Source: Desulfobacterota bacterium AH_259_B03_O07 (GTDB lineage: Bacteria > Desulfobacterota_D > UBA1144 > Nemesobacterales > CSP1-2). Taken from it: a stretch of DNA of 63,706 bases. Numbering within the stretch: the stretch's first letter is position 1; each line of letters starts with the position of its first letter. The notes under the pieces were generated by a model, which was given only the letters and a program-made list of their open reading frames with translations, was not told the origin of the DNA and made no database searches. Position numbers and translations under genes: made by a program. This document shows positions 3,557-63,706 of this stretch, in pieces. Location of the stretch: contig JALLOG010000002.1 of assembly GCA_027717645.1 (NCBI GenBank), positions 1 through 63,706 of the forward strand, written 5' to 3'.

Positions 3557-3710
3557 TTATAATCAAGCTTTTGAGCTATAGAGTATTCTCTTAACGTCCA
3601 TAATCCACAAATAACATAAATATATTCAATTTTAAATCCCTTTCATTCCGGTATTATGTTACTAAAATCTAATAACAACTAGTTAGTAGAAATCCTCTTT
3701 GAAATGAACA

Positions 3711-3998
3711 ATGAGACACAGGAAGCAAAAAATAAAACGTCAACATAGCATGATAAAGGGTTTGGGAAGATTCCTTGAGGAGAAAATCTCAACACTTAAC
3801 TTCGTCGACGGGATATTGCCTGGTGAGATAAAAGTTGGCAACTCCACCGGCGAACAACTGATCGTTAAATTTAAATATAATACCCTGAGCGGGGCTAAAC
3901 TGATTGCAAGAAGTGGTTCTTCAATTCAAGAGGTTTTTGTCGTTACGAGATTTCCTGAAAAGCTTCAAGAACGATTGGGGGAATTGGATACTAAGTAG
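3711..3998 (+). CDS. hypothetical protein (95 aa, basic N-terminus)
   Basis: Intact ORF convergent with dnaE. No motif recognised. Confidence 0.4.
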   Translation: MRHRKQKIKRQHSMIKGLGRFLEEKISTLNFVDGILPGEIKVGNSTGEQLIVKFKYNTLSGAKLIARSGSSIQEVFVVTRFPEKLQERLGELDTK

Positions 3999-7830: not shown

Positions 7831-7995
7831 CTTTGTCTTGATACAAAGTAACAAAAATCAAGTGCTGTCAAAAAATTAGGATTTATTAAATCAATTCCTA
7901 CAGCTAAAAATATTTAATTCAGCCCCAACCCTAAATCTTTTTTTAACGCTTTCGGAATTGATTTTGGCAATTTTTTGAATGCCCGTTTAAACCAT
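7831..7995 (-). repeat. about 200-bp interspersed repeat family, copy R1 (inverted relative to R2/R3)
   Basis: The reverse complement is near-identical over more than 120 bp to 52312-52436 (GGCATTCAAAAAATTGCCAAAATCAATTCCGAAAGCGTTAAAAAAAGATTTAGGGTTGGGGCTGAATTAAA...). It also shares TGTATCAAGACAAAG. Confidence 0.75.
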
Positions 7996-45980: not shown

Positions 45981-46535
45981 CTAACTTCTATCACCATGTT
46001 TCATAAGTTCATTAGATGGCAAGCTAGGGTCAAGGAGCTTTCTAGCCGTTTCAACTCCCGCAACAGGCAATGTCTTACTGTCCAATAGACCAATTTGAAC
46101 TAAAAGGGATGCCTGATCCCAATAGATGTGTTCACTATCAATTTTCCCATCCTTGAAATGTACTACAGCAACCACAGCGTGCTCAACACGCTTTCCAGTT
46201 GGAGGTACTCCCGGCAGGATCCACGGCATCACTATTGTATGCGTGAATTTATGAATGAGTTCGTCGACTATTCGGTCAGTTCCGACAGTACGTGAGATTA
46301 GAACAATTTCAGTATCTGGAGGTTGTGAAGGAATAAAGTATTTAGAGTAGAATTTTCGAACGTTATCCAAACCGAGGCCTCCGGTCATAGCTGGAACATG
46401 GTTTACAAACGGTTCCTGAGTCATAGTTGACATGGTGTCTTCAATACTTTTGGTCACAAACTCAGAAGCTGTGTGTTTCTCCCACAATTCAACCATCTTC
46501 TGCTGTGATGGAGTAAGGGGAAGTTCTTCTTCCAT
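45981..46535 (-). CDS. SnoaL-like / NTF2-fold protein (core copy)
   Basis: Aligns along its whole length with the cassette gene at 57953-58582 (TPSQQKMVELWEKH..., KFTHTIVMPWILPGVPPTGKRVE..., IYWDQASLLVQIGLL...). Confidence 0.6.
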   Translation of the reverse strand: MEEELPLTPSQQKMVELWEKHTASEFVTKSIEDTMSTMTQEPFVNHVPAMTGGLGLDNVRKFYSKYFIPSQPPDTEIVLISRTVGTDRIVDELIHKFTHTIVMPWILPGVPPTGKRVEHAVVAVVHFKDGKIDSEHIYWDQASLLVQIGLLDSKTLPVAGVETARKLLDPSLPSNELMKHGDRS

Positions 46536-48169: not shown

Positions 48170-48430
<261 letters not shown>

Positions 48431-48446
<16 letters not shown>

Positions 48447-48637
48447 AGAATAAGGAAATGCATAAGGAATACGATTTTTCCTAAGGTGTCAGAGGGAAAT
48501 ATACCAAAAGATACCACCTAAGTTCCAACATAATTGTACTTGAACCAGATGTAGCTCAGCACTTCCCAAATTCCGAATCTGTAAATCAGGCATTGCGAAC
48601 CATCACCCTCCTAAACAAAAAAAGAAAAGTAACGTAA
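48431..48637 (+). pseudogene. brnA: BrnA-like antitoxin gene, disrupted
   Basis: MKKESKNKEMHKEYDFS, then an in-frame TAA, then GVRGKYTKRY...IVLEPDVAQHFPNSESVNQALRTI. Overlaps the toxin 3' end, as is usual for these pairs. Confidence 0.65.
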
Positions 48638-48763
48638 TTATGTTAGAAAAAGGCAAGGAAAACTAATTCTCTCGAGTAAATAAGGTAAATAAATAAGGAT
48701 AAAATAATTAGGGATAGATGTCCCTATTTATTTTTATAATCTCAAAAATCATAGCTACTCTTA

Positions 48764-49208: not shown

Positions 49209-50399
49209 CTAGATCAATCCCTTTAGTTTGTTAAGTATCAGCCTGGCCTCATTATCCGGAGTGAGCTTCCCACTGTCGATCTCAAGATCAAAGGGAATAT
49301 CCCTATACATCTGCATGAGGTGTGCCAGTGAATGACCCGGAGGACGATCACCTCGCTCTCTTTCGTGCTTTTCCAATATACTAATATCTGCAATAACTGA
49401 GACCCAAAGCACAGGATGGTCTTTAAATAATATAGCAGCCTCATCATAGATGTCCTTGTACACAAATATCTGGTCTGAGACCACATTTATACCGATTTGG
49501 GACATTGAGGCGACTGCACAGAGTTGGCCACCCATGAATTTGCGAGCAACTGGTCCCAGTTGCTGTCTCATATATCTAGTAGGATTATCAGCATTAGGAC
49601 CTGGGGGCATGTAATATAATCCGAGCCTGCCATCGGGTGGATGTTTAAAATGTTTCATGCTCTCAGGGTCTAGTGGAGTGTCCATGTATCGTTTTGCCAT
49701 TCCTTCTATAATTGTATCCACACCGAATTGTATGAAGGGTTCTTCAGCTAATTCCTGTATAGTACGGCAAAGCGTTGATTTCCCAGCGCTACCCGGCCCA
49801 GCAAGAATAACAATATGACCCGGGCTCTCATTTGGAAATGGCATTAAACGGGGAACCCACCTAGCCCTGGGTTGTCCCTTCATAGGTCGGTTCTCCAGAT
49901 AATCAAGAAGCTTGTTGGCATTGTCTTCAACGGAGTTTGAGCCACCATCAAGAGAGTAACCATAATCTAAATCGGTATACATTTCAGAGTTGAGCTCCTG
50001 GGCAGGCCCCTCAGGTTGTTGACCAAATTCCTTCTCACGTTTAACGAGAATCTCTTCCGAACATTTAACCTCAACCCAAATAACATCCAAATCATCTAAA
50101 AACGTCTTACATTCATCTAGCCATCCACGATCAAGTATAGTATGGTCAACAAGCAGATCACAGCCACTCCTGGCCAATCCTGAAATCACGCCATGAAGTG
50201 CCCTTATATATAATCGATCAACAGTTTTACTGAGATGGTGCTTCTTAGCAGATTCAACAGGTTCAACAATATTGAAAAGTTGGTCAATCCCAACCGCATA
50301 ATAAGGCTTATCGGCGACTGACTGGACTTTGTTTATGATTGAGGTTTTACCCGCGTGTGGCGGACCATTTAAAATAACGACGGTGCCCGCAATACTCAT
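49209..50399 (-). CDS. tandem fusion of two chloramphenicol-phosphotransferase-like (CPT) P-loop kinase domains
   Basis: Two Walker A loops (ILNGPPHAGKTS, ILAGPGSAGKST). Each is followed by a CPT-like core (VIWVEVKCSEEILVKREKEFG; VLWVSVIADISILEKHERERGDRPPG). Confidence 0.7.
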   Translation of the reverse strand: MSIAGTVVILNGPPHAGKTSIINKVQSVADKPYYAVGIDQLFNIVEPVESAKKHHLSKTVDRLYIRALHGVISGLARSGCDLLVDHTILDRGWLDECKTFLDDLDVIWVEVKCSEEILVKREKEFGQQPEGPAQELNSEMYTDLDYGYSLDGGSNSVEDNANKLLDYLENRPMKGQPRARWVPRLMPFPNESPGHIVILAGPGSAGKSTLCRTIQELAEEPFIQFGVDTIIEGMAKRYMDTPLDPESMKHFKHPPDGRLGLYYMPPGPNADNPTRYMRQQLGPVARKFMGGQLCAVASMSQIGINVVSDQIFVYKDIYDEAAILFKDHPVLWVSVIADISILEKHERERGDRPPGHSLAHLMQMYRDIPFDLEIDSGKLTPDNEARLILNKLKGLI

Positions 50400-50603
50400 C
50401 TCAGATTCCTTTTATAATAATTTTTAACTTTTAAATTTTATATATAGATTAACTTATAATATATAACCCTGCAGCAAGACCCAAGTTCTTCGCGCATCAA
50501 AAGTAAATCCTCAAGGTCATTGCTGTACATTTCACATAAGTGATGGAAAAATTGTTACAATTTCAATATGATTCTCCTTTTTATTGATCATTTTCTGAAT
50601 AAG

Positions 50604-50813
50604 AAAGCCGTTAATTGGCATTCCAAAAATTGCGTTAAGAAAATCATAAACGAAGACGTTAAAAAAAATTTGCGGGCTGGGGTGGAATTAAATTTTTTAG
50701 ATGGAGTGAATGATTTTTAGCTAAATTTTTGGGCAGCCTTGTCCTGAGCACCGTCGAAGGGTTGTTTCTTTGTATCAAGACAAAGAAAAAAATAAATATT
50801 TTGGATACCCGAT
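50604..50813 (+). repeat. about 200-bp interspersed repeat family, copy R2 (diverged)
   Basis: Shares blocks with R3: AAAGCCGTTAATTGGCATTCC, CGTTAAAAAAAATTTGCGGGCTGGGGTGGAATTAAA, CCTTGTCCTGAGCACCGTCGAAGGGTTGTTTCT and TGTATCAAGACAAAGAAA. Confidence 0.65.
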
Positions 50814-52168: not shown

Positions 52169-52296
52169 TCCGATGTTAAATATCATAACCAAGGTTTTGT
52201 ACACAAATTTGTCATCTCTTTGGATGTCACGTAATTCGGGGACGGACTTTTTGTAATTTCATTATTGTTTTCTTTTCAGTAATCCTTTATGAATTG

Positions 52297-52548
52297 AAAA
52301 GCCATTTAATCGGCATTCAAAAAATTGCCAAAATCAATTCCGAAAGCGTTAAAAAAAGATTTAGGGTTGGGGCTGAATTAAAGATTTTTAGCTATAGGAA
52401 TTGATTTAATAAATCCTAATTTTTTGACAGCCCTTGTCCTGAACCCTGAGCTGCATCGAAGGGTCGAAGGGTTGTTTCTCGTTTCATGCTGAGTTTATCG
52501 AAGTATGTATCAAGACAAAGAAAGAATAAATAACATATGGATGCCCAA
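52297..52548 (+). repeat. about 200-bp interspersed repeat family, copy R3
   Basis: See R1 and R2. Contains an extra GC-rich insert CCTGAGCTGCATCGAAGGGTCGAAGGGTTGTTTC. Confidence 0.75.
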
Positions 52549-54559: not shown

Positions 54560-54782
54560 AATATTTACCTCCTTTTGATTAGTTTTAGGTGTTATTCTCA
54601 TTGGTTATTATAATATTGCACGAATAAACGATTTTCTAGTTTATTTTAGGTACCTGAGCTCAGAAAACTTGACGAAGACCTTAATTCTTCATATATGATT
54701 TTGGTACTTATAGAATAAACACAAAAATTAATATTATGTGGCAGGAGCGTTAAGGTCCGCCGCAGATTCAGGAGGGTCCACC

Positions 54783-55109
54783 ATGCAAGCCAAAAATCTT
54801 GAAATATTCAATGAAATGCCGTTCTTTTTTTGGGTCAAGGATGAGGAGGGGAGGTATATATGGGTCAATCGAGCCATTTCTCAAATGGCCAAGGAGGATA
54901 TTATCGGAAAAACCGACCACGAATTACCCTGGGCTGATAACGCCGATGCCTTAAGAGCGGTCGACAAGCAGGTCTTGGAGACGGGAAAGCCCAGTTTCCT
55001 CCACGAATACGTGGATAAGCCCAGTAAAGCTACCCTAAGTGTTTGTAAATTTGTGGGGGAATTTGACGGCAAAAGATGTGCCTTTGGAGTTTCGTTCATT
55101 ATCGAGTAA
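54783..55109 (+). CDS. stand-alone PAS domain protein
   Basis: FFFWVKDEEGRYIWVNRAISQMAKEDIIGKTDHEL is PAS-like. GGAGGG lies 7 nt upstream of ATG 54783 (ORF opens at GTG 54738). Confidence 0.6.
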   Translation: MQAKNLEIFNEMPFFFWVKDEEGRYIWVNRAISQMAKEDIIGKTDHELPWADNADALRAVDKQVLETGKPSFLHEYVDKPSKATLSVCKFVGEFDGKRCAFGVSFIIE

Positions 55110-55135
55110 TAGGCTCAGAAAAGGAAGAAAAAGGA

Positions 55136-55198
55136 TTGACAACTTTTTTCTGTAAAATTGTTGGAAAGTATGAATCGACTTAATAATATGTGTTGGAC
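55136..55198 (+). repeat. AT-rich junction module, short form (ends GTTGGAC at the start of cassette 1)
   Basis: GACAACTTTTTTCT directly abuts GTAAAATTGTTGGAAAGTATGAATCGACTTAATAATATGTGTTGGAC. These are the same arms as the 249-bp repeats, without the central ~180 bp. Confidence 0.7.
55161..55189 (+). promoter_or_regulatory. candidate outward-facing promoter in the junction module
   Basis: TTGGAA, 17 nt, TAATAT, about 35 nt upstream of the helicase ATG. The same geometry occurs at 57118-57146 and 63621-63649. Confidence 0.3.
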
Positions 55199-55225
55199 CG
55201 AACGCCCGGAACCGGAGGGAAGTCC

Positions 55226-56890
55226 ATGGTAGAGGACGAACCGCAGAGTGCGGAAGAGGCTGAACTCAGAGCTGCCATCGAGGCCGTGCTGAGTTCCCCC
55301 AGCGACAAGAAACTGGTGATTGCCGGCCCGGGTACCGGCAAGACAACGCTCTTCGAGCAGCTGCTTGAACTTGCGCCTGGACACCCCGATCAGCGGATTG
55401 TCCTCACATTTGTCAACAACCTCAAGGACGATCTGAATGACGATCTAGGCGGACTGGCTCAGGTTTTCACACTTCACTCGTACTGCCTGGGCCTACTGCA
55501 ACGCGACCCGGCACTCAGAGGTTCGCTTTCGCCAGACTTTCGCTGCTGTCCCGGGATTGCGAGCATCATCGCAGAAGACTGGGAGGTCATCACGCAAAGC
55601 GACGCCCCTAAGTTTGTTGGTGAAATGCGCGCTCTCTCAGAGGAGAACCAGATTCCGTTCTACCTAGCTCGCGGCGAGTACTACGACGCGGTCGATTTTG
55701 ACGACACCGTGTACCGGGCGTACGAGGGTCTATCCTTTGGGCGTGCCACACCCGAGAGCTACGACCTTGTCCTAATAGACGAGTACCAGGATTTCAACGC
55801 GCTTGAGGCGGGCGTCATCGACGCTTTGGCTGAGCGTAGCCCCATCTTGATTGCCGGTGACGATCACCAGGCTCTCTACAGTCAACTGCGCGATGCGAGT
55901 TGGGACCACATCCGGCTCCTCAGCAAAGCTGGGGAGTACGATGTCTTCAAGCTCCCGTTCTGCATGCGCTGTCCCAAGGTCGTGGTCGATGCAGTCAACG
56001 ACGTTCTGACCAAGGCCGAAGAGCTGGGCAGGCTCGAAGGGAGGATCGAGAAGCCCTACAAGCACTTCCCTCCCGCAAAGGGAGCCGACAGGGCGAAGTA
56101 TTCCAAGATTGTGCACGTAGAGCCGTCGGTCCAGAGACAGGATGCGAACTACATGGGGCGCTATCTCGCGCAAGCGATTGCTCAAATCACCGAGGATGAG
56201 ATTAAGACAGCTGCGCACGGCGGCTACCCCGCGGCGTTGGTCATCGTGGCGCAGCCCTACCGCGATCAAATCGTCAGTCATCTTGAAGCCGCGGGGTACG
56301 TTGTCGACACCAGGCGCAACTCCGACAGCAAGCTCAATCGGGAAGCGGGCATATCAATTCTGAAAGTGGATCGGGTCTCCAATCTTGGATGGCGAATCGT
56401 TCTCGGCGCAGACGCCCCTTCCTTTCTCAAGGACGCTATTGTCACAACCGCAGATTGCACGAGCCGTCTTGTCGATGTAGTCCCAGATGAGTACCGCGAG
56501 CGCGTGCTGGCCGAAGTTGATGCGTACGAGCCACCAGAAGAGGTACAGGCTGAGGCAGAGACTCCCGCTTCATCGGATGTCCCTTCTGTCAGAGTGACTT
56601 CCTTCGAGGGAGCCAAGGGCCTCTCCGCACAGCACGTGTACATCGCAGGCCTGCACAATGGCGAATTGCCGCATGATCCGGCTTCAATCAAGGACCTCGA
56701 GATCTGCAAGTTCGTGGTAGCGCTCACCCGCACACGCAAGAAATGCACTCTGATCCGCACCCGGAACTTCGCTGGCAACTGGAAGACGCCATCCTCCTTC
56801 ATATCGTGGATAGACCCTGCTCGTCTGGAGTTCATCAAGGTTGACGCACAGTATTGGAAGCAGCAGGCGGAAGAGGCATCTGAGAACTGA
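55226..56890 (+). CDS. UvrD/PcrA-like superfamily 1 helicase (compact, about 555 aa)
   Basis: Walker A AGPGTGKTT, Walker B LIDEYQD, motif III AGDDHQALY, motif V-like FEGAKGLSAQHVYIAG and motif VI VALTRTRKK. GGAGGG lies 6 nt upstream of ATG 55226 (ORF opens at GTG 55190). Visibly GC-rich relative to the flanks. Confidence 0.85.
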   Translation: MVEDEPQSAEEAELRAAIEAVLSSPSDKKLVIAGPGTGKTTLFEQLLELAPGHPDQRIVLTFVNNLKDDLNDDLGGLAQVFTLHSYCLGLLQRDPALRGSLSPDFRCCPGIASIIAEDWEVITQSDAPKFVGEMRALSEENQIPFYLARGEYYDAVDFDDTVYRAYEGLSFGRATPESYDLVLIDEYQDFNALEAGVIDALAERSPILIAGDDHQALYSQLRDASWDHIRLLSKAGEYDVFKLPFCMRCPKVVVDAVNDVLTKAEELGRLEGRIEKPYKHFPPAKGADRAKYSKIVHVEPSVQRQDANYMGRYLAQAIAQITEDEIKTAAHGGYPAALVIVAQPYRDQIVSHLEAAGYVVDTRRNSDSKLNREAGISILKVDRVSNLGWRIVLGADAPSFLKDAIVTTADCTSRLVDVVPDEYRERVLAEVDAYEPPEEVQAEAETPASSDVPSVRVTSFEGAKGLSAQHVYIAGLHNGELPHDPASIKDLEICKFVVALTRTRKKCTLIRTRNFAGNWKTPSSFISWIDPARLEFIKVDAQYWKQQAEEASEN

Positions 56891-56906
56891 CCCATAAGCA
56901 CTGCAT

Positions 56907-57155
56907 GTTTTCGGGGTCTGGCGTGAATATTCATTCAACTATTTTCTATCAATTTTAAACAAGCGACAGCTATTCTTTTGATACAACCTTTTCTAATTTT
57001 ATCTTGCTTTATATGATTTTAAGAAGATTTAGGCCCAGCTTGTTGAGTCTCGATCCTTTTATGTGTAAAGTGCCTAAATTACTGTTTGTAATTTGATCAG
57101 AGTATATTGTAAAATGGTTAGAAAGTATGAATCGACTTATTAATATATGTTAGGC
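56907..57155 (+). repeat. 249-bp AT-rich junction repeat, copy 1 (ends GTTAGGC at the start of cassette 2)
   Basis: Differs at 5 positions from 63410-63658. Partly complementary arms ATTCAACTATTTTCTATCAATTTT (56933-) and AAAATGGTTAGAAAGTATGAAT (57111-). Confidence 0.9.
57118..57146 (+). promoter_or_regulatory. candidate outward-facing promoter in the junction repeat
   Basis: TTAGAA, 17 nt, TAATAT, about 30 nt upstream of the GTG start at 57178. Confidence 0.3.
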
Positions 57156-57177
57156 TAATAATTGAGAGGGGTAGTTA

Positions 57178-57834
57178 GTGAAATCTGAATTTGAAGAAGG
57201 ATCAATAGTATTCAATATTGACAGGCCCTTTACTCTAAGAGATCTCGCTGGCCCATGGAGCTGGGTAGCAAATCGTTATTACTGGTTCGTATTTGATGAA
57301 CTCTTTATGGATTACTATATTGAGACGTACAAAAATGGTAATAATCCAACAAACATAATTACTTACGGGTTAGATAAAGTTGCAGGGCAACTCGAAATTA
57401 GTCTAGAAAAAACAAGTGTTGCTTTCCTCGTTACGAGCGCCTCTTCCGGAAGTATTCTTCTTAAAGTGTCAGGTGTATATAAAGCGCTTAAGAGTTTGAC
57501 GGCTTGGCTACCCCTCTATGGAAAGTGGGTACAAGAAAAGGGAGAAATTGATATTGCTACAGAAGTAAAACGCTCTGAAGCTCTGAATGAAATAACTAAA
57601 AACTTTGTTCGGGCGGGTATTCCAGAAGATGTTGCTTTCAGCATGGCTTATGAGCGCTTGTATCGCGGCTGGCCTGATTTTTATTCGCCGGAAGGAATGG
57701 GGTTGGCCGAACATATTACATCGAGTGAAGTTGAAAATACCGGAAATGTTCTAACTGTGAAAGAAAGGGAGATTCATGCCATTTCACCTAGAGAAAAGGG
57801 TGTTAATGTATTTGAGAAATCAGATAAAAAATAG
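57178..57834 (+). CDS. hypothetical protein (218 aa), cassette 2
   Basis: GAGAGGGG RBS upstream of GTG 57178. AT-rich. The stop TAG abuts attC R''. No motif recognised. Confidence 0.6.
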   Translation: MKSEFEEGSIVFNIDRPFTLRDLAGPWSWVANRYYWFVFDELFMDYYIETYKNGNNPTNIITYGLDKVAGQLEISLEKTSVAFLVTSASSGSILLKVSGVYKALKSLTAWLPLYGKWVQEKGEIDIATEVKRSEALNEITKNFVRAGIPEDVAFSMAYERLYRGWPDFYSPEGMGLAEHITSSEVENTGNVLTVKEREIHAISPREKGVNVFEKSDKK

Positions 57835-57924
57835 CCTAACAATAGGCTTGAGAGGGACTTGGTGCCGCGGCGTTCTGCTTCGCTACACTCTGCATCCCCA
57901 AGCCCCTCAGCCTAAGCGTTAGGC
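57834..57924 (+). mobile_element. integron attC site (91 bp)
   Basis: R'' is GCCTAAC (57834-57840) and R' is GTTAGGC (57918-57924). The left arm GCCTAACAATAGGCTTGAGAGGGACTTGG matches the reverse complement of the right arm, GCCTAACGCTTAGGCTGAGGGGCTTGGG. Confidence 0.85.
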
Positions 57925-57952
57925 CGTTTAACCCAATAGGAGGTGAGAATTA

Positions 57953-58582
57953 ATGAAAAAAATTGCCCAAATGTTAGCATTTGTAATTGTTACGCTGTGG
58001 ATCTTTACAGGTTGCGATTCCAAAAATAACAAGGAGGAACAAGAAATGAATACGCAAAAAGAAGAAACTCTCACACCTGCCCAGCAAGCTATGGTTGCGA
58101 CCTGGGAAGAGCACATGCGCGCTGAGTTTGAACTACTCAACGTCGATAGCACTCTTGCCACTATGGTCGAAGAGCCCTACCTTGTTAATATTCCGATTCT
58201 TGTTGGCGGTGATGACCAGAAGGGTGTGCGAGATTTCTATACCAACCATATGATCGGGCAATTTCCAGCAGATATGGAAATCGTCGCGGTGTCCCGCACA
58301 GTTGGCAACGACCAGCTCGTCGAGGAACTGGTTCTGAAGTTTACCCACACGACGAACATGGACTGGATGTTGCCAGGCGTTGCACCGACTGGGAAGAAGG
58401 TTGAGGTTCCTGTGGTTGTTATCGTTGGTTTTAAAGATGACAAGATGGAAAGTGAACGAATCTATTGGGACCAATCTTCCGTGCTCGTACAGCTTGGTCT
58501 TATTGAAGCTGAAAAATTGCCTGTTACCGGCGTCGAGAGTGCTCAAAAGCTGCTCCAGCTTGTCGGTATAGGTGATGACTGA
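57953..58582 (+). CDS. SnoaL-like / NTF2-fold lipoprotein, cassette 3
   Basis: Lipobox IFTGC. AGGAGG RBS. Paralog of 45981-46535. Confidence 0.7.
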   Translation: MKKIAQMLAFVIVTLWIFTGCDSKNNKEEQEMNTQKEETLTPAQQAMVATWEEHMRAEFELLNVDSTLATMVEEPYLVNIPILVGGDDQKGVRDFYTNHMIGQFPADMEIVAVSRTVGNDQLVEELVLKFTHTTNMDWMLPGVAPTGKKVEVPVVVIVGFKDDKMESERIYWDQSSVLVQLGLIEAEKLPVTGVESAQKLLQLVGIGDD

Positions 58583-58629
58583 AGGAATTAGATCAGAGGA
58601 TATGCAACTATCGCTGATCATGACCAAGC

Positions 58630-58758
58630 GCCTAACAATTCATTCACCCGACAAAAGGCGCCAGTTCTTTAAGTTCGTTAAGTGCTCTCTCAAAGTTTAT
58701 TTGGAGATTTTAAGATAAGTGCAGTCAACCCCTTTTGCGGGTGATGACAGTGTTAGGC
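58630..58758 (+). mobile_element. integron attC site (129 bp)
   Basis: GCCTAACAATTCATTCACCCGACAAAAGG ... CCCCTTTTGCGGGTGATGACAGTGTTAGGC. The arms are reverse-complementary with bulges. The left arm resembles the aadA-type 59-base element. Confidence 0.88.
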
Positions 58759-58780
58759 TTCATTAAAAGGAGGGAAAATC

Positions 58781-60604
58781 ATGAGGATATACTGGACTCG
58801 AAAAATGCGAAACATCATTTACGCCTTAGCCATCATCGTAGGTTTCTTTGCTGCGGACTCAGGTTGGGCTGACACGGCTGACTATGTATTCACCAATGGC
58901 AAGATCTACACCGTCAACAAAGCCCAACCGTGGGCGGAAGCCGTTGCGGTCGATGGCAACAAGATCGTCTATGTCGGCAACAACGCAGGTGCAGCCAAGT
59001 TCAACGGCAAGGGCACCAAGTCAATCGACCTCAAGGGCCGCTTGATGCTGCCCGGCTTCATTGAATCGCACATTCACATCTCTCTCGGCGCGTCGACGAA
59101 ATCGGGAGTGATCTTGGCAACTTCGGATAACCTGGAGAAGGTGCTGGAGAAGGTAAAGAAATACGCTGACGAGCACCCCAAAAAAGAGACGATTTTTGGC
59201 GCTTCCTACGATGCATTCATGTTCAAAAAGTCGAACGGGCGGTACAAGGAGCCAAACAAAGCGTTGCTTGATAAGATCGTTCCAGATCGTCCAGTTTTGC
59301 TGCTGGATCACACCGCCCATTCGGCCTGGGTGAACTCCAAGACCTTAGAGTTGGCGGGCATCACCAAGGACACGAAGAACCCCTACGGCGGAGAGTACAT
59401 CCGCGATAAAAAGAATAAGGAGCTTACCGGGGCGATCAAGGGAATCCCGGTCTACAATTCAGTCTCCGATAAAATCAATGCGATCACCGTCGAATCGATT
59501 CAGGCCTCCCTCCCAGAGGTGCTTAAGAACCTGACGGAGTTCGGCTTTACCACGGCCATAGACATGGGAATCGCCACAGCGAGGGAGGCCGCTTACAAAG
59601 CGATAGTCAAGCTCGACAAAGACGGTATGCTCCCGCTTCGCATCAGCATGACCCACTTCGTCAACACGCCCGACCTGGCAAAGACGGCAGTCGAGACACT
59701 CGACGGCTATGCCAAGAAGTACAAATCCGACCACGTCTGGATTGACACGCTGAAGATCACGATCGACAGCGTGCTCGAAAACCAGGGGGCTGCCATGCTG
59801 AAGCCCTACAAAAAGAAAAACAAGGATGACAAGGATAACGATGGCATTCTCTATTTTGACCACGAAGAGATGAAGAAAATGGTCATGGGAGCAGCAAAAA
59901 AGGGATACAACGTGGTCGTTCACGCCATCGGTGACCGCGCCGTCCGAGCGGCACTCGATGCCGCGGAAGCACTACGAAAGGCTGGCTACAAGGATACGCG
60001 GTTTATCATAACGCATGCGCAAATGGTGAATCCAGATGACCGACCACGCTTCAAGACACTCGACGTGACCGTGCAGACTACAGGCAACTGGGCCATGCAG
60101 CAGAAGGTTTACCTGGAGTCCCTCGAGGAGGGACGATATAACACCTTGCAGTTCCCGTTCCGTTTCTGGGCGGACAATGGCGTCAACATAGCGTTGGGAG
60201 CGGACTGGCCGGCGACTCCGGGTGGATTCAAGCTTGGCGTGAATCCGTTTAACAACATCTACACATCCATGCATCGGCGGCCTCCGGCAGCTATCGTCTC
60301 CAAAATGGGATCGACCAATGAACCGCTGCCTCCCGTGGATCAAGTGCTGACGCTCGAAGAAGCCGTCTGGGCTTACACGATCGGGTGCGCTAAGATGCTG
60401 GGGATCGAAGATCAAATCGGGTTGATCGAGGTGGGCAAAATGGCCGATATGATCCTTCTCAGCCAGAACCTCTTCGAAATCGCCCCCCCAGGACATCCCG
60501 AAGACCAAGGTTCTGGTCACGATGATGGACGGCAAGATCCTCTACGGTCGTCTATAAACTCAAAATTCGAAGAAAGCGATCTCGTGGATCTCAGAACGGC
60601 CTAA
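58781..60604 (+). CDS. secreted amidohydrolase-3 family metal-dependent hydrolase (3' end frameshifted), cassette 4
   Basis: Signal peptide. HxH motif FIESHIHISLG. After the C7 run at 60483-60489 the +1 frame reads QDIPKTKVLVTMMDGKILYGRL-stop (60555-60557), a family-typical C-terminus. The current frame instead stops inside attC R''. Confidence 0.8.
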   Translation: MRIYWTRKMRNIIYALAIIVGFFAADSGWADTADYVFTNGKIYTVNKAQPWAEAVAVDGNKIVYVGNNAGAAKFNGKGTKSIDLKGRLMLPGFIESHIHISLGASTKSGVILATSDNLEKVLEKVKKYADEHPKKETIFGASYDAFMFKKSNGRYKEPNKALLDKIVPDRPVLLLDHTAHSAWVNSKTLELAGITKDTKNPYGGEYIRDKKNKELTGAIKGIPVYNSVSDKINAITVESIQASLPEVLKNLTEFGFTTAIDMGIATAREAAYKAIVKLDKDGMLPLRISMTHFVNTPDLAKTAVETLDGYAKKYKSDHVWIDTLKITIDSVLENQGAAMLKPYKKKNKDDKDNDGILYFDHEEMKKMVMGAAKKGYNVVVHAIGDRAVRAALDAAEALRKAGYKDTRFIITHAQMVNPDDRPRFKTLDVTVQTTGNWAMQQKVYLESLEEGRYNTLQFPFRFWADNGVNIALGADWPATPGGFKLGVNPFNNIYTSMHRRPPAAIVSKMGSTNEPLPPVDQVLTLEEAVWAYTIGCAKMLGIEDQIGLIEVGKMADMILLSQNLFEIAPPGHPEDQGSGHDDGRQDPLRSSINSKFEESDLVDLRTA

Positions 60605-60717
60605 CAAGGCGGTCGGGCTGACGCCCACCATGGCGCTTCGACCGAAGTTTAGAGTAATTTCTAAATTTATCTCAATAGCAATGCTGATGTTGGGCGCTGC
60701 TCACCTCTGCGTTATCT
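60599..60717 (+). mobile_element. integron attC site (119 bp, variant R')
   Basis: R'' is GCCTAAC (60599-60605) and R' is GTTATCT (60711-60717). The arms TAACAAGGCGGTCGGGCTGACGCCCACC and reverse-complement TAACGCAGAGGTGAGCAGCGCCCAAC are partly complementary. Confidence 0.65.
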
Positions 60718-61110
60718 AGCTTATTTGCCAGTGGATACATGGAGCCTAGGAAATAGCCCAGTCTTTAAGGCAAGGGTCTTTCCAACTCAACCCCCGGTCC
60801 AATTGGATTGGGGAAGTCTAAGTGATTTCTCAGCAACACTTCCTCCGTGGGAAAGTTTTTAGATATCGTTCCCGCCTTCTTCTGGATTCCAAATCGAGTT
60901 TTCACCGCAATCCGGTGTCGTGCAGCTACCAAATCCTAGCAATGGCCTTACAATCGATTTCCCAAATGGCGGGTCTATCTCTTTTCCTTCGCCGTGCACA
61001 CCAGTCTCGCCCTGGACACCAAAGAAGATTCGTGTGAACGGCGATCGACTTAAGGTTCGAGCTCGATCACAATAATCAAGAGAGCTTTGATAGTGTTATT
61101 AGTCTTGAGC

Positions 61111-61249
61111 GCCTAACAAGCCGTTGAACACGGACTCTCGCTCTCGCCGGTTAACGGCGGCGAGAAACAAACATACTTTGTTTGATATTATCAGAATAAA
61201 TTATACAATGGTAAAAAAGTATGTGTCATCTTAATAATTAATGTTAGCC
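61111..61249 (+). mobile_element. hybrid cassette junction: attC-like left half plus AT-rich junction module
   Basis: GCCTAACAAGCCGTTGAACACGGAC and hairpin CTCGCCGGTTAACGGCGGCGAG. From about 61168 a diverged copy of the junction module follows, ending AATGTTAGCC (61243-61249). Confidence 0.55.
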
Positions 61250-61272
61250 GACCAGACTGAAAAGGAGCCCAT

Positions 61273-61914
61273 TTGACGAGACCAACCAAGCTTGATCCTC
61301 GGTACGTGAACCTCCGCGTCATCCTTCCCTACGCGCTCAAGGTGGAGGCAGTGGAGAAGGCGGTGGCTGAAACGTACCGGCTTTTTCATGGGTTCAATGA
61401 CTTCCTTGAGAGTGGTGGTTTCCGTCCATTGGAGGAATTGCTGCTGGGTAACTTGCTCTCCGGGATTATCTCGGAGTTTCTAGTGAAGAATATCGCGCGA
61501 GCTTCTGAAACGCTGGAGGCGAACATGAAGGTGGGAGGGCATCCCGACCTTCTCCCAAGGGGCCATTACTCATCGAATCTGGTTTTGAAGGGCGACGAGG
61601 GAATCGAAATCAAGTCATCGATTCAACGTGGCGGTTGGCAGGGGCACAACCCGGAGGACTGCTGGCTGATGGTGTTTCGCTATGCGATTGGCTAGCAGGG
61701 AAAGTGTGAATCTGTACCGCTCACTTTTCTTGAGATTCTCTGTGCCAAACTTGACCGATCGGATTGGTCGTTTTCAGGTCGCAAGGGCACTTCACGCAGG
61801 ACACCTACGGCGTCCATAACGGCGTCTGGTGTCGAGAAGCTTCGGAGCAATTTTCTCTATCGACTTCCCGGTGTCGGAATCGGCCGTCACCGCGACATTC
61901 TGGCAGAGCCGTGA
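61273..61914 (+). pseudogene. PD-(D/E)XK restriction endonuclease with in-frame amber codon
   Basis: AAGGAG RBS upstream of TTG 61273. Catalytic-like GGHPDLLP...EGIEIKSS. TAG at 61693-61695 is followed in the same frame by 72 more sense codons (…PLTFLEILCAKLDRSDWSFSGRKGTSRRTPTASI…) up to TGA 61912-61914. Confidence 0.65.
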
Positions 61915-61943
61915 GCCTGAAAGATCGTATTTTGATACTGTGT

Positions 61944-62933
61944 TTAGCTGAACAGGCTTGGCTCCACACTCCCGGCGTTCACCAAAGGGCGAGACGAACG
62001 GTCCTTGGGTTCCCCATTTGGAACCAGAGCTGCCAGTTTCGGAATTGCTGATCTTGCGATGTCGAAAAAGTCTGGGTCGCTCTCGATTCCAATGCTTATG
62101 TAGCCTACGGCGCACGCTGCGGCGATGGTCGAACCCCCGCCCATGAAGGGGTCAAGCACGACACCCTCTCTAAGAGGCAAGGCTGCTCGCAAAATATGGC
62201 GCATAAAGCCCTGCGGTTTGAGGGAGGGATGCGGAGCGATGTCGCGTTCAAGGGGACGCGTGGGAGAGCTTCGGATAACATCGTAGAAAGGTTGTTCCGA
62301 GCTAACCCTGCGAAGCCCGCCTGTCTTCCACTTGCGCAGGTTGTCCTGAACGCGACCCTCGCAAGGTTTTCGGAAGAGTCCCCATGGTTCCCAGCAAGAT
62401 CGGGGCATGACAGTAACGTCCTTGAACTCGTCGTGAGCGTTCTTTGGGCGGTCTCCACCACGGAGAGTTTGAACCAGGCGGATGATCTCACCACGCTTCT
62501 CAAAACCGCTCTCAATGAGTGCCATGTAGACCAGTTGTGAAAGAAGCGGATTCGTGGCTATGAAGACGTGCCCACCGGGAACGAGCACCCGAAAAGCGCG
62601 CGCCCCCCACTGCCGAAAGAATTCTGTGAGTTGCCGTTTTTCGTCATTGCTGAGAATAGTGAACCTGGGCAGTGGTTGGCGGACGCAGCCGCCGATGGCA
62701 GGAGGGATTCGCCAAACACCGCCAAGTCCGCGCCGGAGCTTATGTTTTTCTTTGGCGGTGTACTCTTTCAAACCGTAAGGCGGATCCGTGACGATGGCGT
62801 GGATACTGTTAGGTTGGCGGTGCTCCATCCACTCGAAGCAATTCCCCTGAACAAGCTCATAGGAGGCTGCTACGCTTGGCTGGTAGATCGCCCGAGGCTC
62901 AGCGACTGCCTTTGCGAGTTGGGGGGGGGTCAT
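61944..62933 (-). CDS. beta-class DNA N6-adenine/N4-cytosine methyltransferase
   Basis: Motif IV TDPPY precedes motif I LDPFMGGGST (the beta permutation). Convergent with the endonuclease, with a 29-bp gap. Confidence 0.88.
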   Translation of the reverse strand: MTPPQLAKAVAEPRAIYQPSVAASYELVQGNCFEWMEHRQPNSIHAIVTDPPYGLKEYTAKEKHKLRRGLGGVWRIPPAIGGCVRQPLPRFTILSNDEKRQLTEFFRQWGARAFRVLVPGGHVFIATNPLLSQLVYMALIESGFEKRGEIIRLVQTLRGGDRPKNAHDEFKDVTVMPRSCWEPWGLFRKPCEGRVQDNLRKWKTGGLRRVSSEQPFYDVIRSSPTRPLERDIAPHPSLKPQGFMRHILRAALPLREGVVLDPFMGGGSTIAAACAVGYISIGIESDPDFFDIARSAIPKLAALVPNGEPKDRSSRPLVNAGSVEPSLFS

Positions 62934-63231
62934 TCTCCTCGTAATCGTCGCGCCGGAAGGTTTTTCGCAAGACCGCCGGGGCTTCGGTTGGGTGCTGCCA
63001 CAAGATCTCCCGAACGTCTCGCGGCAGGTGACCTGCCAGGATTAGGAGCGAGCTAGGATCTGTCGCATAAACTTTGGCAAGGTGCCGGACTGTCGACTCG
63101 GCTGGCCGAGCCTTGCCGCCCTCAAGACGGGAAATGTACCCCTTCGAGACTCGAAGTCTCTTCGCTACATCGGCTTGGATCAACCCGCATGCAAGGCGGG
63201 CCGCCCTAATGTGCTGCCCAAACTGTATCAT
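62899..63231 (-). CDS. XRE-type HTH controller (C) protein of the R-M module
   Basis: HTH GLIQADVAKRLRVSKGYISRLEGG. Start assigned to MIQFGQHI (the ORF track extends it spuriously into the repeat). Overlaps the methyltransferase start by 35 nt. Confidence 0.7.
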   Translation of the reverse strand: MIQFGQHIRAARLACGLIQADVAKRLRVSKGYISRLEGGKARPAESTVRHLAKVYATDPSSLLILAGHLPRDVREILWQHPTEAPAVLRKTFRRDDYEENDPPPTRKGSR

Positions 63232-63409
63232 GCAGAATTTCTCCGCAATGCTGGTGGTAATCTTCGAGCGCTGCATGCAAAGCAATATAACCGTGTTAAC
63301 TATTTTAGTCAACCATGTTCCTTGCTGCTTCCGGAGTGTCCAGCGGCGGCTTGCACCACGGCAGTCGGCTAACAACAAACGGTTGCAGCGGACGGCGCTA
63401 TGCGCCGGT

Positions 63410-63658
63410 GTTTTTGGGGTCTGGCGTGAATATTCATTCAACTATTTTCTAACAATTTTAAACAAGCGACAGCTATTCTTTTGATACAACCTTTTCTAAT
63501 TTTATCTTGCTTTATATGATTTTAAGAAGATTTAGGCCCAGCTTGTTGAGTCTCGATCCTTTTATGTGTAAAGTGCCTAAATTACTGTTTGTAATTTGAT
63601 CAGAGTATATTGTAAAATGGTTAGAAAGTATGAATCAACTTAATAATATATGTTATGC
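63410..63658 (+). repeat. 249-bp AT-rich junction repeat, copy 2 (ends GTTATGC at the start of the next cassette)
   Basis: Differs at 5 positions from 56907-57155. Preceded at 63368 by the attC-like left half GGCTAACAACAAACGGTTGCAGCGGAC. Confidence 0.9.
63621..63649 (+). promoter_or_regulatory. candidate outward-facing promoter in the junction repeat
   Basis: TTAGAA, 17 nt, TAATAT, upstream of ATG 63677. Confidence 0.3.
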
Positions 63659-63676
63659 ATAAATGAGGAACAAGGG

Positions 63677-63706
63677 AATGAATGAACACGAGAAAATAAA
63701 CTACCG
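63677..63706 (+). CDS. 5' end of the next cassette ORF (partial, runs off the window)
   Basis: AGGAACAAGGGA followed by ATG 63677 (MNEHEKINY...). Only 10 codons are visible. Confidence 0.35.

Follow-up and report, generated by a model that had tools for sequence, protein, structure and literature searches.

The window analysed here is a whole contig of 63,706 bp from the metagenome-assembled genome of an uncultured Thermodesulfobacteriota-like bacterium. Its subject is an array of integron gene cassettes at the right-hand end of the contig, together with a 48-nt module, here called D2, which recurs at the junctions between cassettes. Positions 1-40.7 kb are core chromosome of about 38% GC (38.3%), with dnaE, ftsY, ribD, murJ, recJ, trkAH, aroE and the full mraZ-to-ftsZ division and cell-wall cluster. 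A variable region follows at 41-54.7 kb, and the GC content rises to 51-57% from about 55 kb up to the contig end. The array spans from 54,750 to the contig end at 63,706 and is composed of co-oriented cassettes of 42-57% GC; it runs off the contig, the last unit being only 54 nt long. A first-pass annotation, made from the sequence alone, had proposed an integrase-less cassette array at this locus. Its coordinates are mostly right. To the left of its start, at about 55.1 kb, lies a further, cassette-like unit with a PAS gene.

attC sites and the D2 junction module

Candidate attC sites were assessed by two tests. In the first, the bottom strand was folded and compared with 200 shuffles; in the second, the complementarity of R''/R' arms was scanned for RYYYAAC...GTTRRRY pairs 50-170 nt apart, on both strands of the whole window, and compared with five shuffled windows. 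The sites at 57834-57924 and 58630-58758 (both GCCTAAC...GTTAGGC) each fold, on the bottom strand, into a single long hairpin, with z = -3.7 and z = -4.8, respectively, and with 0 of 200 shuffles being as stable in either case. Both hairpins have the 8-bp R box paired and closed, and present extra unpaired bases on the R''-L'' arm. Their arm scores are 11.0 and 15.5, respectively, against a null maximum of 10.5, and no other site in the window exceeds the shuffles; reference attC sites of other arrays score 10.5-15. The first-pass annotation had named these two imperfect palindromes as attC sites and had quoted their arms correctly, and both sites passed the bottom-strand folding check it had suggested. 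It had also likened the 58630 site to aadA-type 59-base elements; this likeness comes down to the R''-L'' consensus, and a blastn search of the site against 72,556 plasmids returned no similar sequence. An Rfam search of the array, at the gathering threshold and at E <= 5, returned nothing relevant, and at the gathering threshold the whole window was without a hit.

At 60599-60717 (R'' GCCTAAC, R' GTTATCT) the R''/R' pair is plausible, as had been annotated, but the minimum-energy fold leaves the site open (z = -0.6) and the arm score, 9.0, falls in the upper null range; the site is plausibly a degenerate or exchanged attC site. The stretch 61111-61249, previously read as a hybrid site, consists of the left half of an attC (R'', L'' and a complete central stem-loop) followed by unrelated AT-rich sequence, with an arm score of 3.0. 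Similarly, 63367-63658 joins the left half of a GC-rich attC to unrelated AT-rich DNA, with an arm score of 0.5. An inversion between two attC sites was considered as the source of these half-attC fusions, and was rejected because the central stem-loop is intact in both fusions and differs between them. After the helicase open reading frame (ORF; stop at 56890), R'' and attC are absent, and an AT-rich 250-nt repeat starts 15 nt further on. Altogether, a clean attC is present at only two of eight junctions, and two to three of the eight are recognisable as attC, so that the earlier description of canonical attC sites holds for the two clean ones and is overstated for the array. Nor does a palindrome follow each plus-strand ORF, as had been stated: the helicase has no R'', and two of the three genes in the restriction-modification-controller (R-M-C) cassette lie on the minus strand.

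Four of the eight junctions are occupied by D2, which stands in place of a whole attC or of its right half. The copies are located at 55151-55198, 57108-57155, 61202-61249 and 63611-63658, all on the plus strand, where 0.00 would be expected by chance. Copy 1 lies at the 5' boundary of the GC-rich part of the array, 41 nt past the PAS stop, with its crossover at G55192|T55193, R' GTTGGAC and no hairpin (z = -0.3). Copy 2 constitutes the last 48 nt of D1, the 250-nt repeat (56906-57155, plus strand, 30% GC) that follows the helicase stop. Copy 3, which is 70% identical to copy 1, constitutes the last 48 nt of an 84-nt plus-strand module (c3) located after the half attC 61111-61165. Copy 4 (R' GTTATGC) is contained in the second copy of D1 (63409-63658, plus strand), which stands in for the right half of the R-M-C attC. 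The two D1 copies are 97-98% identical, and the left edge reads TG|TTTTY in both (TG|TTTTC in the first). Neither the four-copy D2 nor D1 had been included in the earlier inventory of sites.

In an alignment, the conservation of D2 runs from TGTAAAAT to ...ATATG|TT and ends at GTT, where unrelated cassettes start; every copy ends exactly at the G|TT crossover. Internally, D2 presents an R box; 7 nt upstream of it lies CTTAWTA, an L-like box in imperfect inverted form (invariant in six of six known copies), and a GTTRGAA direct repeat is found about 30 nt upstream. No hairpin was found in D2, alone or with its upstream sequence, as the folds are not better than those of shuffles, and a pattern search found no reverse-strand copy, which could have served as a left arm, in the window. 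The arm scores of the D2 junctions are 0.5-5.5, against 10.5-15.5 for real attC sites, and the R''/R' pair of a palindromic, homogeneous attC family is absent from them.

Promoter-like hexamers directed into the downstream cassette are found in D1 (TTGTAA-18-TAAAAT) and in c3 (TTGATA-16-TACAAT), while a candidate inside D2 itself, TTAGAA-17-TAATAT, matches at 8/12 only, below the scan listing. The spacing seen in D1 and c3 is not kept in the context of copy 1 (c1), nor in two relatives described below (L001 and L005). Each cassette that follows a D2 copy has its ribosome-binding site and start codon 25-35 nt beyond the GTT. D1 also contains an 18-nt inverted repeat, 83-89% complementary, between 56940-56957 and 57110-57127, the latter in the 5' part of D2 (63443-63460 and 63613-63630 in the second copy); the stretch 56940-56957 is preceded by ATTCAAC, an RYYYAAC match. 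This complementarity may be what is left of an AT-rich attC, or a product of chance.

Several other identities were considered for these modules. Folds and an ORF and terminator check gave no support to D2 as a hairpin arm, a small ORF or a terminator, and comparison with the LexA consensus gave none to a LexA box. The first 200 nt of D1 were also compared with the PAS gene, and a decayed copy of that gene was rejected because the local alignment is not significant (p about 0.08). Insertion of an IS1111-attC element, a group IIC-attC intron or a miniature inverted-repeat transposable element (MITE) was ruled out: the right halves of attC are missing 3' of D2, and the modules lack inverted terminal repeats as well as any ORF for a transposase or reverse transcriptase. 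Upstream of the PAS gene, 54727-54739 (TTAATATTATGTG) matches D2 over 13 nt, with p about 0.02 for one of three comparisons, which is a weak lead to a fifth, degenerate copy.

In 596 Gb of species-representative genomes, one further D2 copy was found, on a 1.9-kb contig of a metagenome-assembled genome (CAZCXC010000259.1, L001). It is 94-98% identical to the window copies and is preceded by at least 420 nt of AT-rich non-coding DNA; the cassette after it is classical, starting with TTATGC and carrying R'' GCATAAC and a hairpin attC. Searches with two D2 patterns in JGI metagenome contigs found none, IMG/VR viral contigs yielded chance matches only, and plasmids none; likewise, exact-sequence matches of three array proteins were absent from other contigs. 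Contigs from two other JGI samples (L005 and L029) share 54740-55196 with the window at 93% identity. In both, PAS and D2 are conserved up to GTTGG, and a guanylate-cyclase cassette then follows where the window has the helicase. As at a functional attI, a conserved left part is thus followed, to the right of the crossover, by variable cassettes: the helicase in the window, the guanylate cyclase in L005 and L029, and another in L001. Because different cassettes follow the same PAS and D2 in relatives, D2 marks a point of cassette insertion, and in operational terms it thus behaves like an attI or, at the least, like a partner site in recombination.

The cassettes and their cargo

Once inserted by IntI, a cassette has at its start the TTRRRY of its own R', and this sequence is complementary to the R'' of the same cassette. 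Four cassettes have a start hexamer complementary to their own R'': TTAGGC/GCCTAAC in the 218-aa, SnoaL-like and amidohydrolase cassettes, and TTAGCC/GGCTAAC, a non-standard and more telling pair, in the R-M-C cassette. The abrupt changes in base composition noted in the first pass are likewise present, from 38.3% GC in the core to 41.6-57.6% across the cassettes, with 57.6% in the helicase ORF, 41.6% in the 218-aa cassette, 45.7% in the SnoaL-like cassette, 52.9% in the amidohydrolase cassette and 56% in the R-M-C cassette.

The PAS-domain cassette (54750-55192, plus strand) encodes a 108-aa protein (54783-55109; Pfam PAS_4), has its left boundary at GCG|TTAAGG (54749|54750), and has lost its own attC. 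Three related contigs (L018, L019 and L020) have only 54749-55116 in common with the window, at 86% identity; in them, the PAS gene comes after G|TTAAGG and is followed by R'' GCTTAAC. The small PAS gene is therefore also cassette-like. The stand-alone PAS protein belongs to a family of more than 100 clusters (P0004-P0105) of 51-95% identity, mostly from short metagenomic contigs. In more distant relatives (L006-L017), the gene is found in an ordinary chromosomal context without an integrase, e.g., hisS-PAS-methyltransferase-aroC, so the setting of the family, ordinary gene or cassette-like, depends on the lineage.

Two observations on these relatives were made in passing. Contig L018 has a conserved intergenic element of its own, distinct from that of the window (GGGACAGATTTATTTTTGGGYGCGGGCGGTGCCC...), in five copies within 4 kb (231-307, 850-894, 1527-1623, 2874-2967 and 3573-3649), one copy being located after an attC left half (R'' GCTTAAC), as well as a long repeat pair at 1624-1826 and 3628-3830. 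L018 suggests that modules particular to a lineage may occur more widely at cassette junctions. In L005, the PAS cassette is preceded by a 108-aa ORF unit between copies of a motif of about 20 nt (GCTCCCMTTTTGTCAAG; L005:145-175 and 675-705), which is missing at L029:545-590; the difference looks like a deletion or excision between short repeats.

The helicase unit (55193-57149, plus strand) has an ORF at 55226-56890 encoding a UvrD/GajB-like protein (Pfam UvrD-helicase, AAA_19 and UvrD_C) and, as described above, no attC. PADLOC reports partial GajB matches, and the gene stands alone, without a GajA partner. The 218-aa cassette (57150-57924, plus strand) starts with TTAGGC and contains an ORF of no known family (57178-57834), whose TAG stop at 57832-57834 abuts R'' of the attC 57834-57924 (R'' GCCTAAC), as annotated previously. 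Its product has a 68% identical homologue (P0002) on JGI contig L003, in a classical, unrelated array with three good attC hairpins, and the nucleotide homology between the two begins at ATG|TTAGGCTAAT, i.e., at the predicted G|TTAGGC boundary.

The SnoaL-like cassette (57919-58758, plus strand; ORF 57953-58582, Pfam SnoaL) ends in the attC 58630-58758. On the opposite strand, a SnoaL-like gene of the variable region (45981-46535, minus strand) is a paralogue with 68% nucleotide identity to the stretch 58364-58554 (plus strand) of this cassette.

The amidohydrolase cassette (58753-60717, plus strand; Pfam Amidohydro_3, 3e-75) has its ORF from 58781 and ends in the degenerate site 60599-60717. 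The ORF is frameshifted in a C7 run at 60483-60489, and the +1 frame leads to a typical C-terminus with a stop at 60556-60558. The stop at 60602-60604, formerly placed inside R'', is an artefact of this frameshift. The next unit (60712-61249, plus strand) has no convincing ORF. Its start hexamer TTATCT mismatches its R'', and it ends in the half attC 61111-61165 and the c3 module (61166-61249).

The R-M-C cassette (61244-63408, mixed strands) contains a restriction pseudogene (61273-61915, plus strand), an N6/N4 methylase gene (61944-62933, minus strand) and a helix-turn-helix (HTH) controller-like gene (62899-63231, minus strand), identified by Pfam and PADLOC. The methylase is intact and of type II (PADLOC, 6e-113), while the putative restriction endonuclease is split by an in-frame TAG at 61693-61695 into 140 and 72 aa; the restriction gene looks inactivated and the methylase retained. 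The left attC half of this cassette runs from R'' GGCTAAC (63367-63373) through the stem-loop 63393-63407. After D1 copy 2, only the first 54 nt of the next cassette (63653-63706, plus strand; start TTATGC) precede the contig end. Two homopolymers coincide with irregularities in the cargo: the C7 run with the amidohydrolase frameshift, and a G9 run at 62921-62929 with the overlap between the methylase start and the HTH gene end. These runs could be sequencing errors or real slippage sites.

The cargo had been described as defence-flavoured, which is fair for two of five units, yet weak even there, with a lone GajB-like helicase and a restriction gene with an in-frame stop. None of the SnoaL-like, amidohydrolase and 218-aa products is annotated with a defence function.

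Array class and the nature of D2

No integrase was detected on the contig. Among the 57 candidate gene ORFs, picked from contig ORFs of at least 100 aa, none matched Pfam Phage_integrase, and a tblastn search of the contig with IntI1 reached a best E of 2.2, with no IntI fragment. The IntI1 probe matches NCBIfam NF011946 over its full length with 799 bits. This agrees with the first pass, which had seen no integrase to the left of the array. The components of a complete integron, i.e., an intI with the IntI-specific insertion next to attI and the promoter Pc, were not found on the contig. Given at least two attC hairpins and no intI on the contig, the array is, by the IntegronFinder definition, a cluster of attC sites lacking an integron integrase (CALIN). 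The original survey counted 279 such clusters, with at least two attC and no intI nearby, across 2,484 genomes (Cury et al. 2016, PMC4889954), and about half of them lie in genomes encoding IntI (PMC4889954). The earlier proposal of an integrase-less array, either a CALIN or a separated chromosomal integron, is upheld by the real attC sites, the four self-complementary cassettes, the L003 homologue and the lack of a tyrosine recombinase.

The array, its missing integrase and its defence-like cargo are of an ordinary, known and common kind: CALINs are well documented (PMC4889954), and defence systems in integron cassettes have been reported recently in two preprints (bioRxiv 10.1101/2024.07.02.601686 and 10.1101/2024.07.02.601719). 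The part worth attention is the repeated attI-like junction module. As with known CALINs (PMC4889954), there are co-oriented attC sites less than 4 kb apart, no nearby intI, cargo of unknown or non-resistance function, and a variable chromosomal region. In contrast, the junctions here other than the two to three recognisable attC sites consist of a conserved module without a palindrome, which would escape an attC model, and IntegronFinder would probably call a much shorter element, of about 57.8-60.7 kb.

The locus is an integron gene-cassette array in the chromosome, and on balance we favour reading D2 as the functional core of the lineage's attI. The cassettes were captured singly by an IntI-type tyrosine recombinase, with strand exchange between the G and TT of GTTRRRY, as is evident from three attC hairpins, canonical or nearly so, and from cassettes whose first bases are complementary to the R'' they carry. 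D2 would be a double-stranded site with an R box, the inverted L-like box CTTAWTA and the upstream GTTRGAA repeat, and may be bound by an IntI encoded elsewhere or since lost. Its layout of boxes and repeats resembles that of attI1, which comprises direct repeats, an L box and an R box (PMC12901181). The statement that the array has no attI is probably wrong in spirit, given an attI-like D2 is located at the 5' boundary (55151-55198) and three more are inside the array. An active integrase would be expected to make four direct attI-like repeats unstable, or to resolve them quickly; their persistence fits an array that is currently not recombined, static and integrase-less.

The helicase, R-M-C, PAS and ORF-less units could then be cassettes of the ΔattI type, with attC exchanged for a fragment of attI. 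Class 1 and 2 integrons contain such unusual cassettes, in which 14-244 nt of attI, or the whole of attI1, take the place of attC, and sometimes only R'' is left (Partridge 2009 typology; Gonzales Machuca et al. 2026, PMC12901181). IntI1 both excised and inserted the constructs of this type that were tested, including a 244-nt ΔattI2, and excision of attI1-ORF-attI1 reached about 100% (PMC12901181). As in the ΔattI type, non-hairpin sequence of variable length (48-250 nt here) that ends at G|TTRRRY replaces attC after the PAS, helicase, ORF-less and R-M-C units, and R'' or the left part of attC sometimes survives; the same module also precedes the first GC-rich cassette. The differences are that the units here are chromosomal and environmental, that the fragments are long, with four in 8.5 kb, that their left junctions do not fit an L-box x R'' exchange, and that their derivation from attI is itself a deduction. 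We give this derivation of D2 about even chances. A fuller version, with D2 as a genuine double-stranded attI-type site multiplied in a chromosomal array, so that attI-like sites, some with an outward promoter (D1 and c3), alternate with attC, is tenable, if somewhat short of even. The outward promoters of the D1 and c3 modules are themselves predicted from the hexamers described above.

Two further known systems were compared. The array resembles sedentary chromosomal integrons with homogeneous attC sites, such as the Vibrio cholerae superintegron, in being chromosomal, in its repeated, lineage-specific junction, and in a cargo that includes restriction-modification and a defence-like helicase; here, however, the junction repeat is not palindromic, there is no adjacent integrase, and the canonical attC sites are heterogeneous and GC-rich. 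Insertions of the attG type (bioRxiv 10.1101/2022.09.11.507474) involve IntI recombination at non-att positions with a minimal G-T motif, to be compared with the D1 edge TG|TTTTY, yet they place single cassettes into ordinary genes, whereas the odd junctions here lie within an array and share a 48-nt sequence.

Several results weigh against D2 being the core of an attI. Searches of species-representative genomes, JGI metagenome contigs, IMG/VR and plasmids found no D2 copy adjacent to intI, so that the attI character of D2 is defined by its behaviour. Upstream of the 48-nt core, c1, D1 and L001 differ in sequence, which argues against a nested series of simple truncations from a single attI region. 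A stop codon precedes the left junctions by 7 and 15 nt, or the junctions come just past the attC central stem-loop; neither position agrees with the L-box x R'' model put forward for ΔattI1-11. The flanks of PAS and D2 differ on both sides in L005 and L029, so copy 1 may be borne by a cassette rather than be the primary attI, and in L005 the fold of the putative attC behind the cyclase cassette is unconvincing. Lastly, the source of the contig is a metagenome-assembled genome, and the array is cut off by the end of the contig.

The best of the competing explanations, which we hold possible though less probable than not, concerns the class of the element: the array would be part of a complete integron, with its intI-attI platform on another contig or separated by rearrangement, and the CALIN would be an artefact of fragmentation. 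This is in line with the contig ending 48 nt after a repeat and with about half of CALINs lying in IntI-encoding genomes (PMC4889954). However, cassette polarity puts the platform on the left, where 54.7 kb of chromosome (dcw cluster, dnaE, recJ and others) hold no integrase or fragment of one. This explanation would reclassify the element, leaving the nature of its sites unchanged.

Two explanations of D2 itself are unlikely, to a similar degree. According to one, the lineage had a homogeneous attC family of its own, of which D2 is the right arm (L'-R') that survived, while the left arms decayed or were deleted in an integrase-less array. The location of D2 at the 3' ends of cassettes would suit such an origin, as would the 18-nt complementarity in D1 behind ATTCAAC and the 70-98% likeness of the copies, as in homogeneous families. 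Yet no copy has an R'' partner for the R' in use, D1 folds with z = -0.35, and an 18-nt complementarity has a chance, by a rough estimate, of about 0.1 in 250 nt of AT-rich sequence. A complementary left arm is also missing in c1, c3, L001 and L005, which goes along with the lack of a reverse-strand copy and the low arm scores described above.

The other takes D1 and D2 as repeats foreign to the integron, i.e., a small mobile or repetitive extragenic palindromic (REP)-like element or a promoter module, which was inserted at attC or spread by homologous recombination, the GTT ends being a coincidence or a target preference. D1, with its 250 nt, near identity between copies and no ORF of note, has left edges at differing kinds of position, and sigma-70-like hexamers are present in D1 and c3; moreover, there are other MITE-like repeats in the genome, and L018 has its own repeat five times. 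On the other hand, there are no terminal inverted repeats, target duplications or displaced right halves of attC, so the attC half was replaced rather than split. Furthermore, six of six copies end at GTT before unrelated cassettes, three of which have a matching R'', and c1, L001 and L005 do not keep the promoter spacing.

Metagenomic mis-assembly, joining GC-rich cassettes to AT-rich chromosome across shared att repeats, is very improbable: although the jump from 38% to about 55% GC falls at a repeat, the source is metagenome-assembled and the homopolymer frameshifts hint at sequencing error, the PAS-D2-cassette junctions recur in two independent samples (L005 and L029), D2 at 48 nt is below read length, a host-like 218-aa cassette (41.6% GC) sits amid GC-rich ones, and mixed composition is normal for cassette arrays.

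CALINs are usually viewed as strings of attC and found by the attC hairpin model alone, which would see about one third of this array and miss the helicase, R-M-C and PAS units. If D2 is derived from attI, attI-fragment cassettes, catalogued so far only in class 1 and 2 resistance integrons, would also shape chromosomal arrays of uncultured anaerobes, and cassette censuses based on attC only would undercount such cargo. If, further, D2 is an attI-type site multiplied in the array, ΔattI cassettes would be a natural and recurrent way to build and express arrays in environmental bacteria rather than a clinical curiosity, and through D2 the attI of a Thermodesulfobacteriota integron would become accessible at the sequence level for the first time. 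For the origin of ΔattI sites, a testable set of substrates is available in D2, the two clean attC sites and the two half-attC fusions.

The neighbouring variable region

The region at 41-54.7 kb contains unrelated accessory genes, MITE-like repeats and decayed genes. A hidden cassette array on the opposite strand was considered for it and rejected, given its attC-like palindromes are not above noise and it has no D2 remnants; the description just given suits the region better. The 63.7-kb contig has no tRNA genes.

A MITE-like intergenic repeat of about 130-230 nt is present in both the core and the variable region, at 7859-7991 and 52305-52436 (inverted, 96%) and at 50559-50769 and 52255-52479 (69%), and JGI contig L002 also matches it. 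The segment 52260-53617, with SDR and holin-like genes, is 97% identical to L002; the two diverge at 52260, beyond which L002 has other small genes, including one for an HTH_38 protein, making this another breakpoint in the variable region. At 48173-48700 there are two reading frames, both broken by stop codons, which look like those of a putative BrnT-type toxin and a putative BrnA-type antitoxin (...KEYDFS*GVRGKY... in the latter). Finally, 49209-50399 (minus strand) encodes a 396-aa protein with two tandem chloramphenicol-phosphotransferase-like (CPT) P-loop kinase domains.

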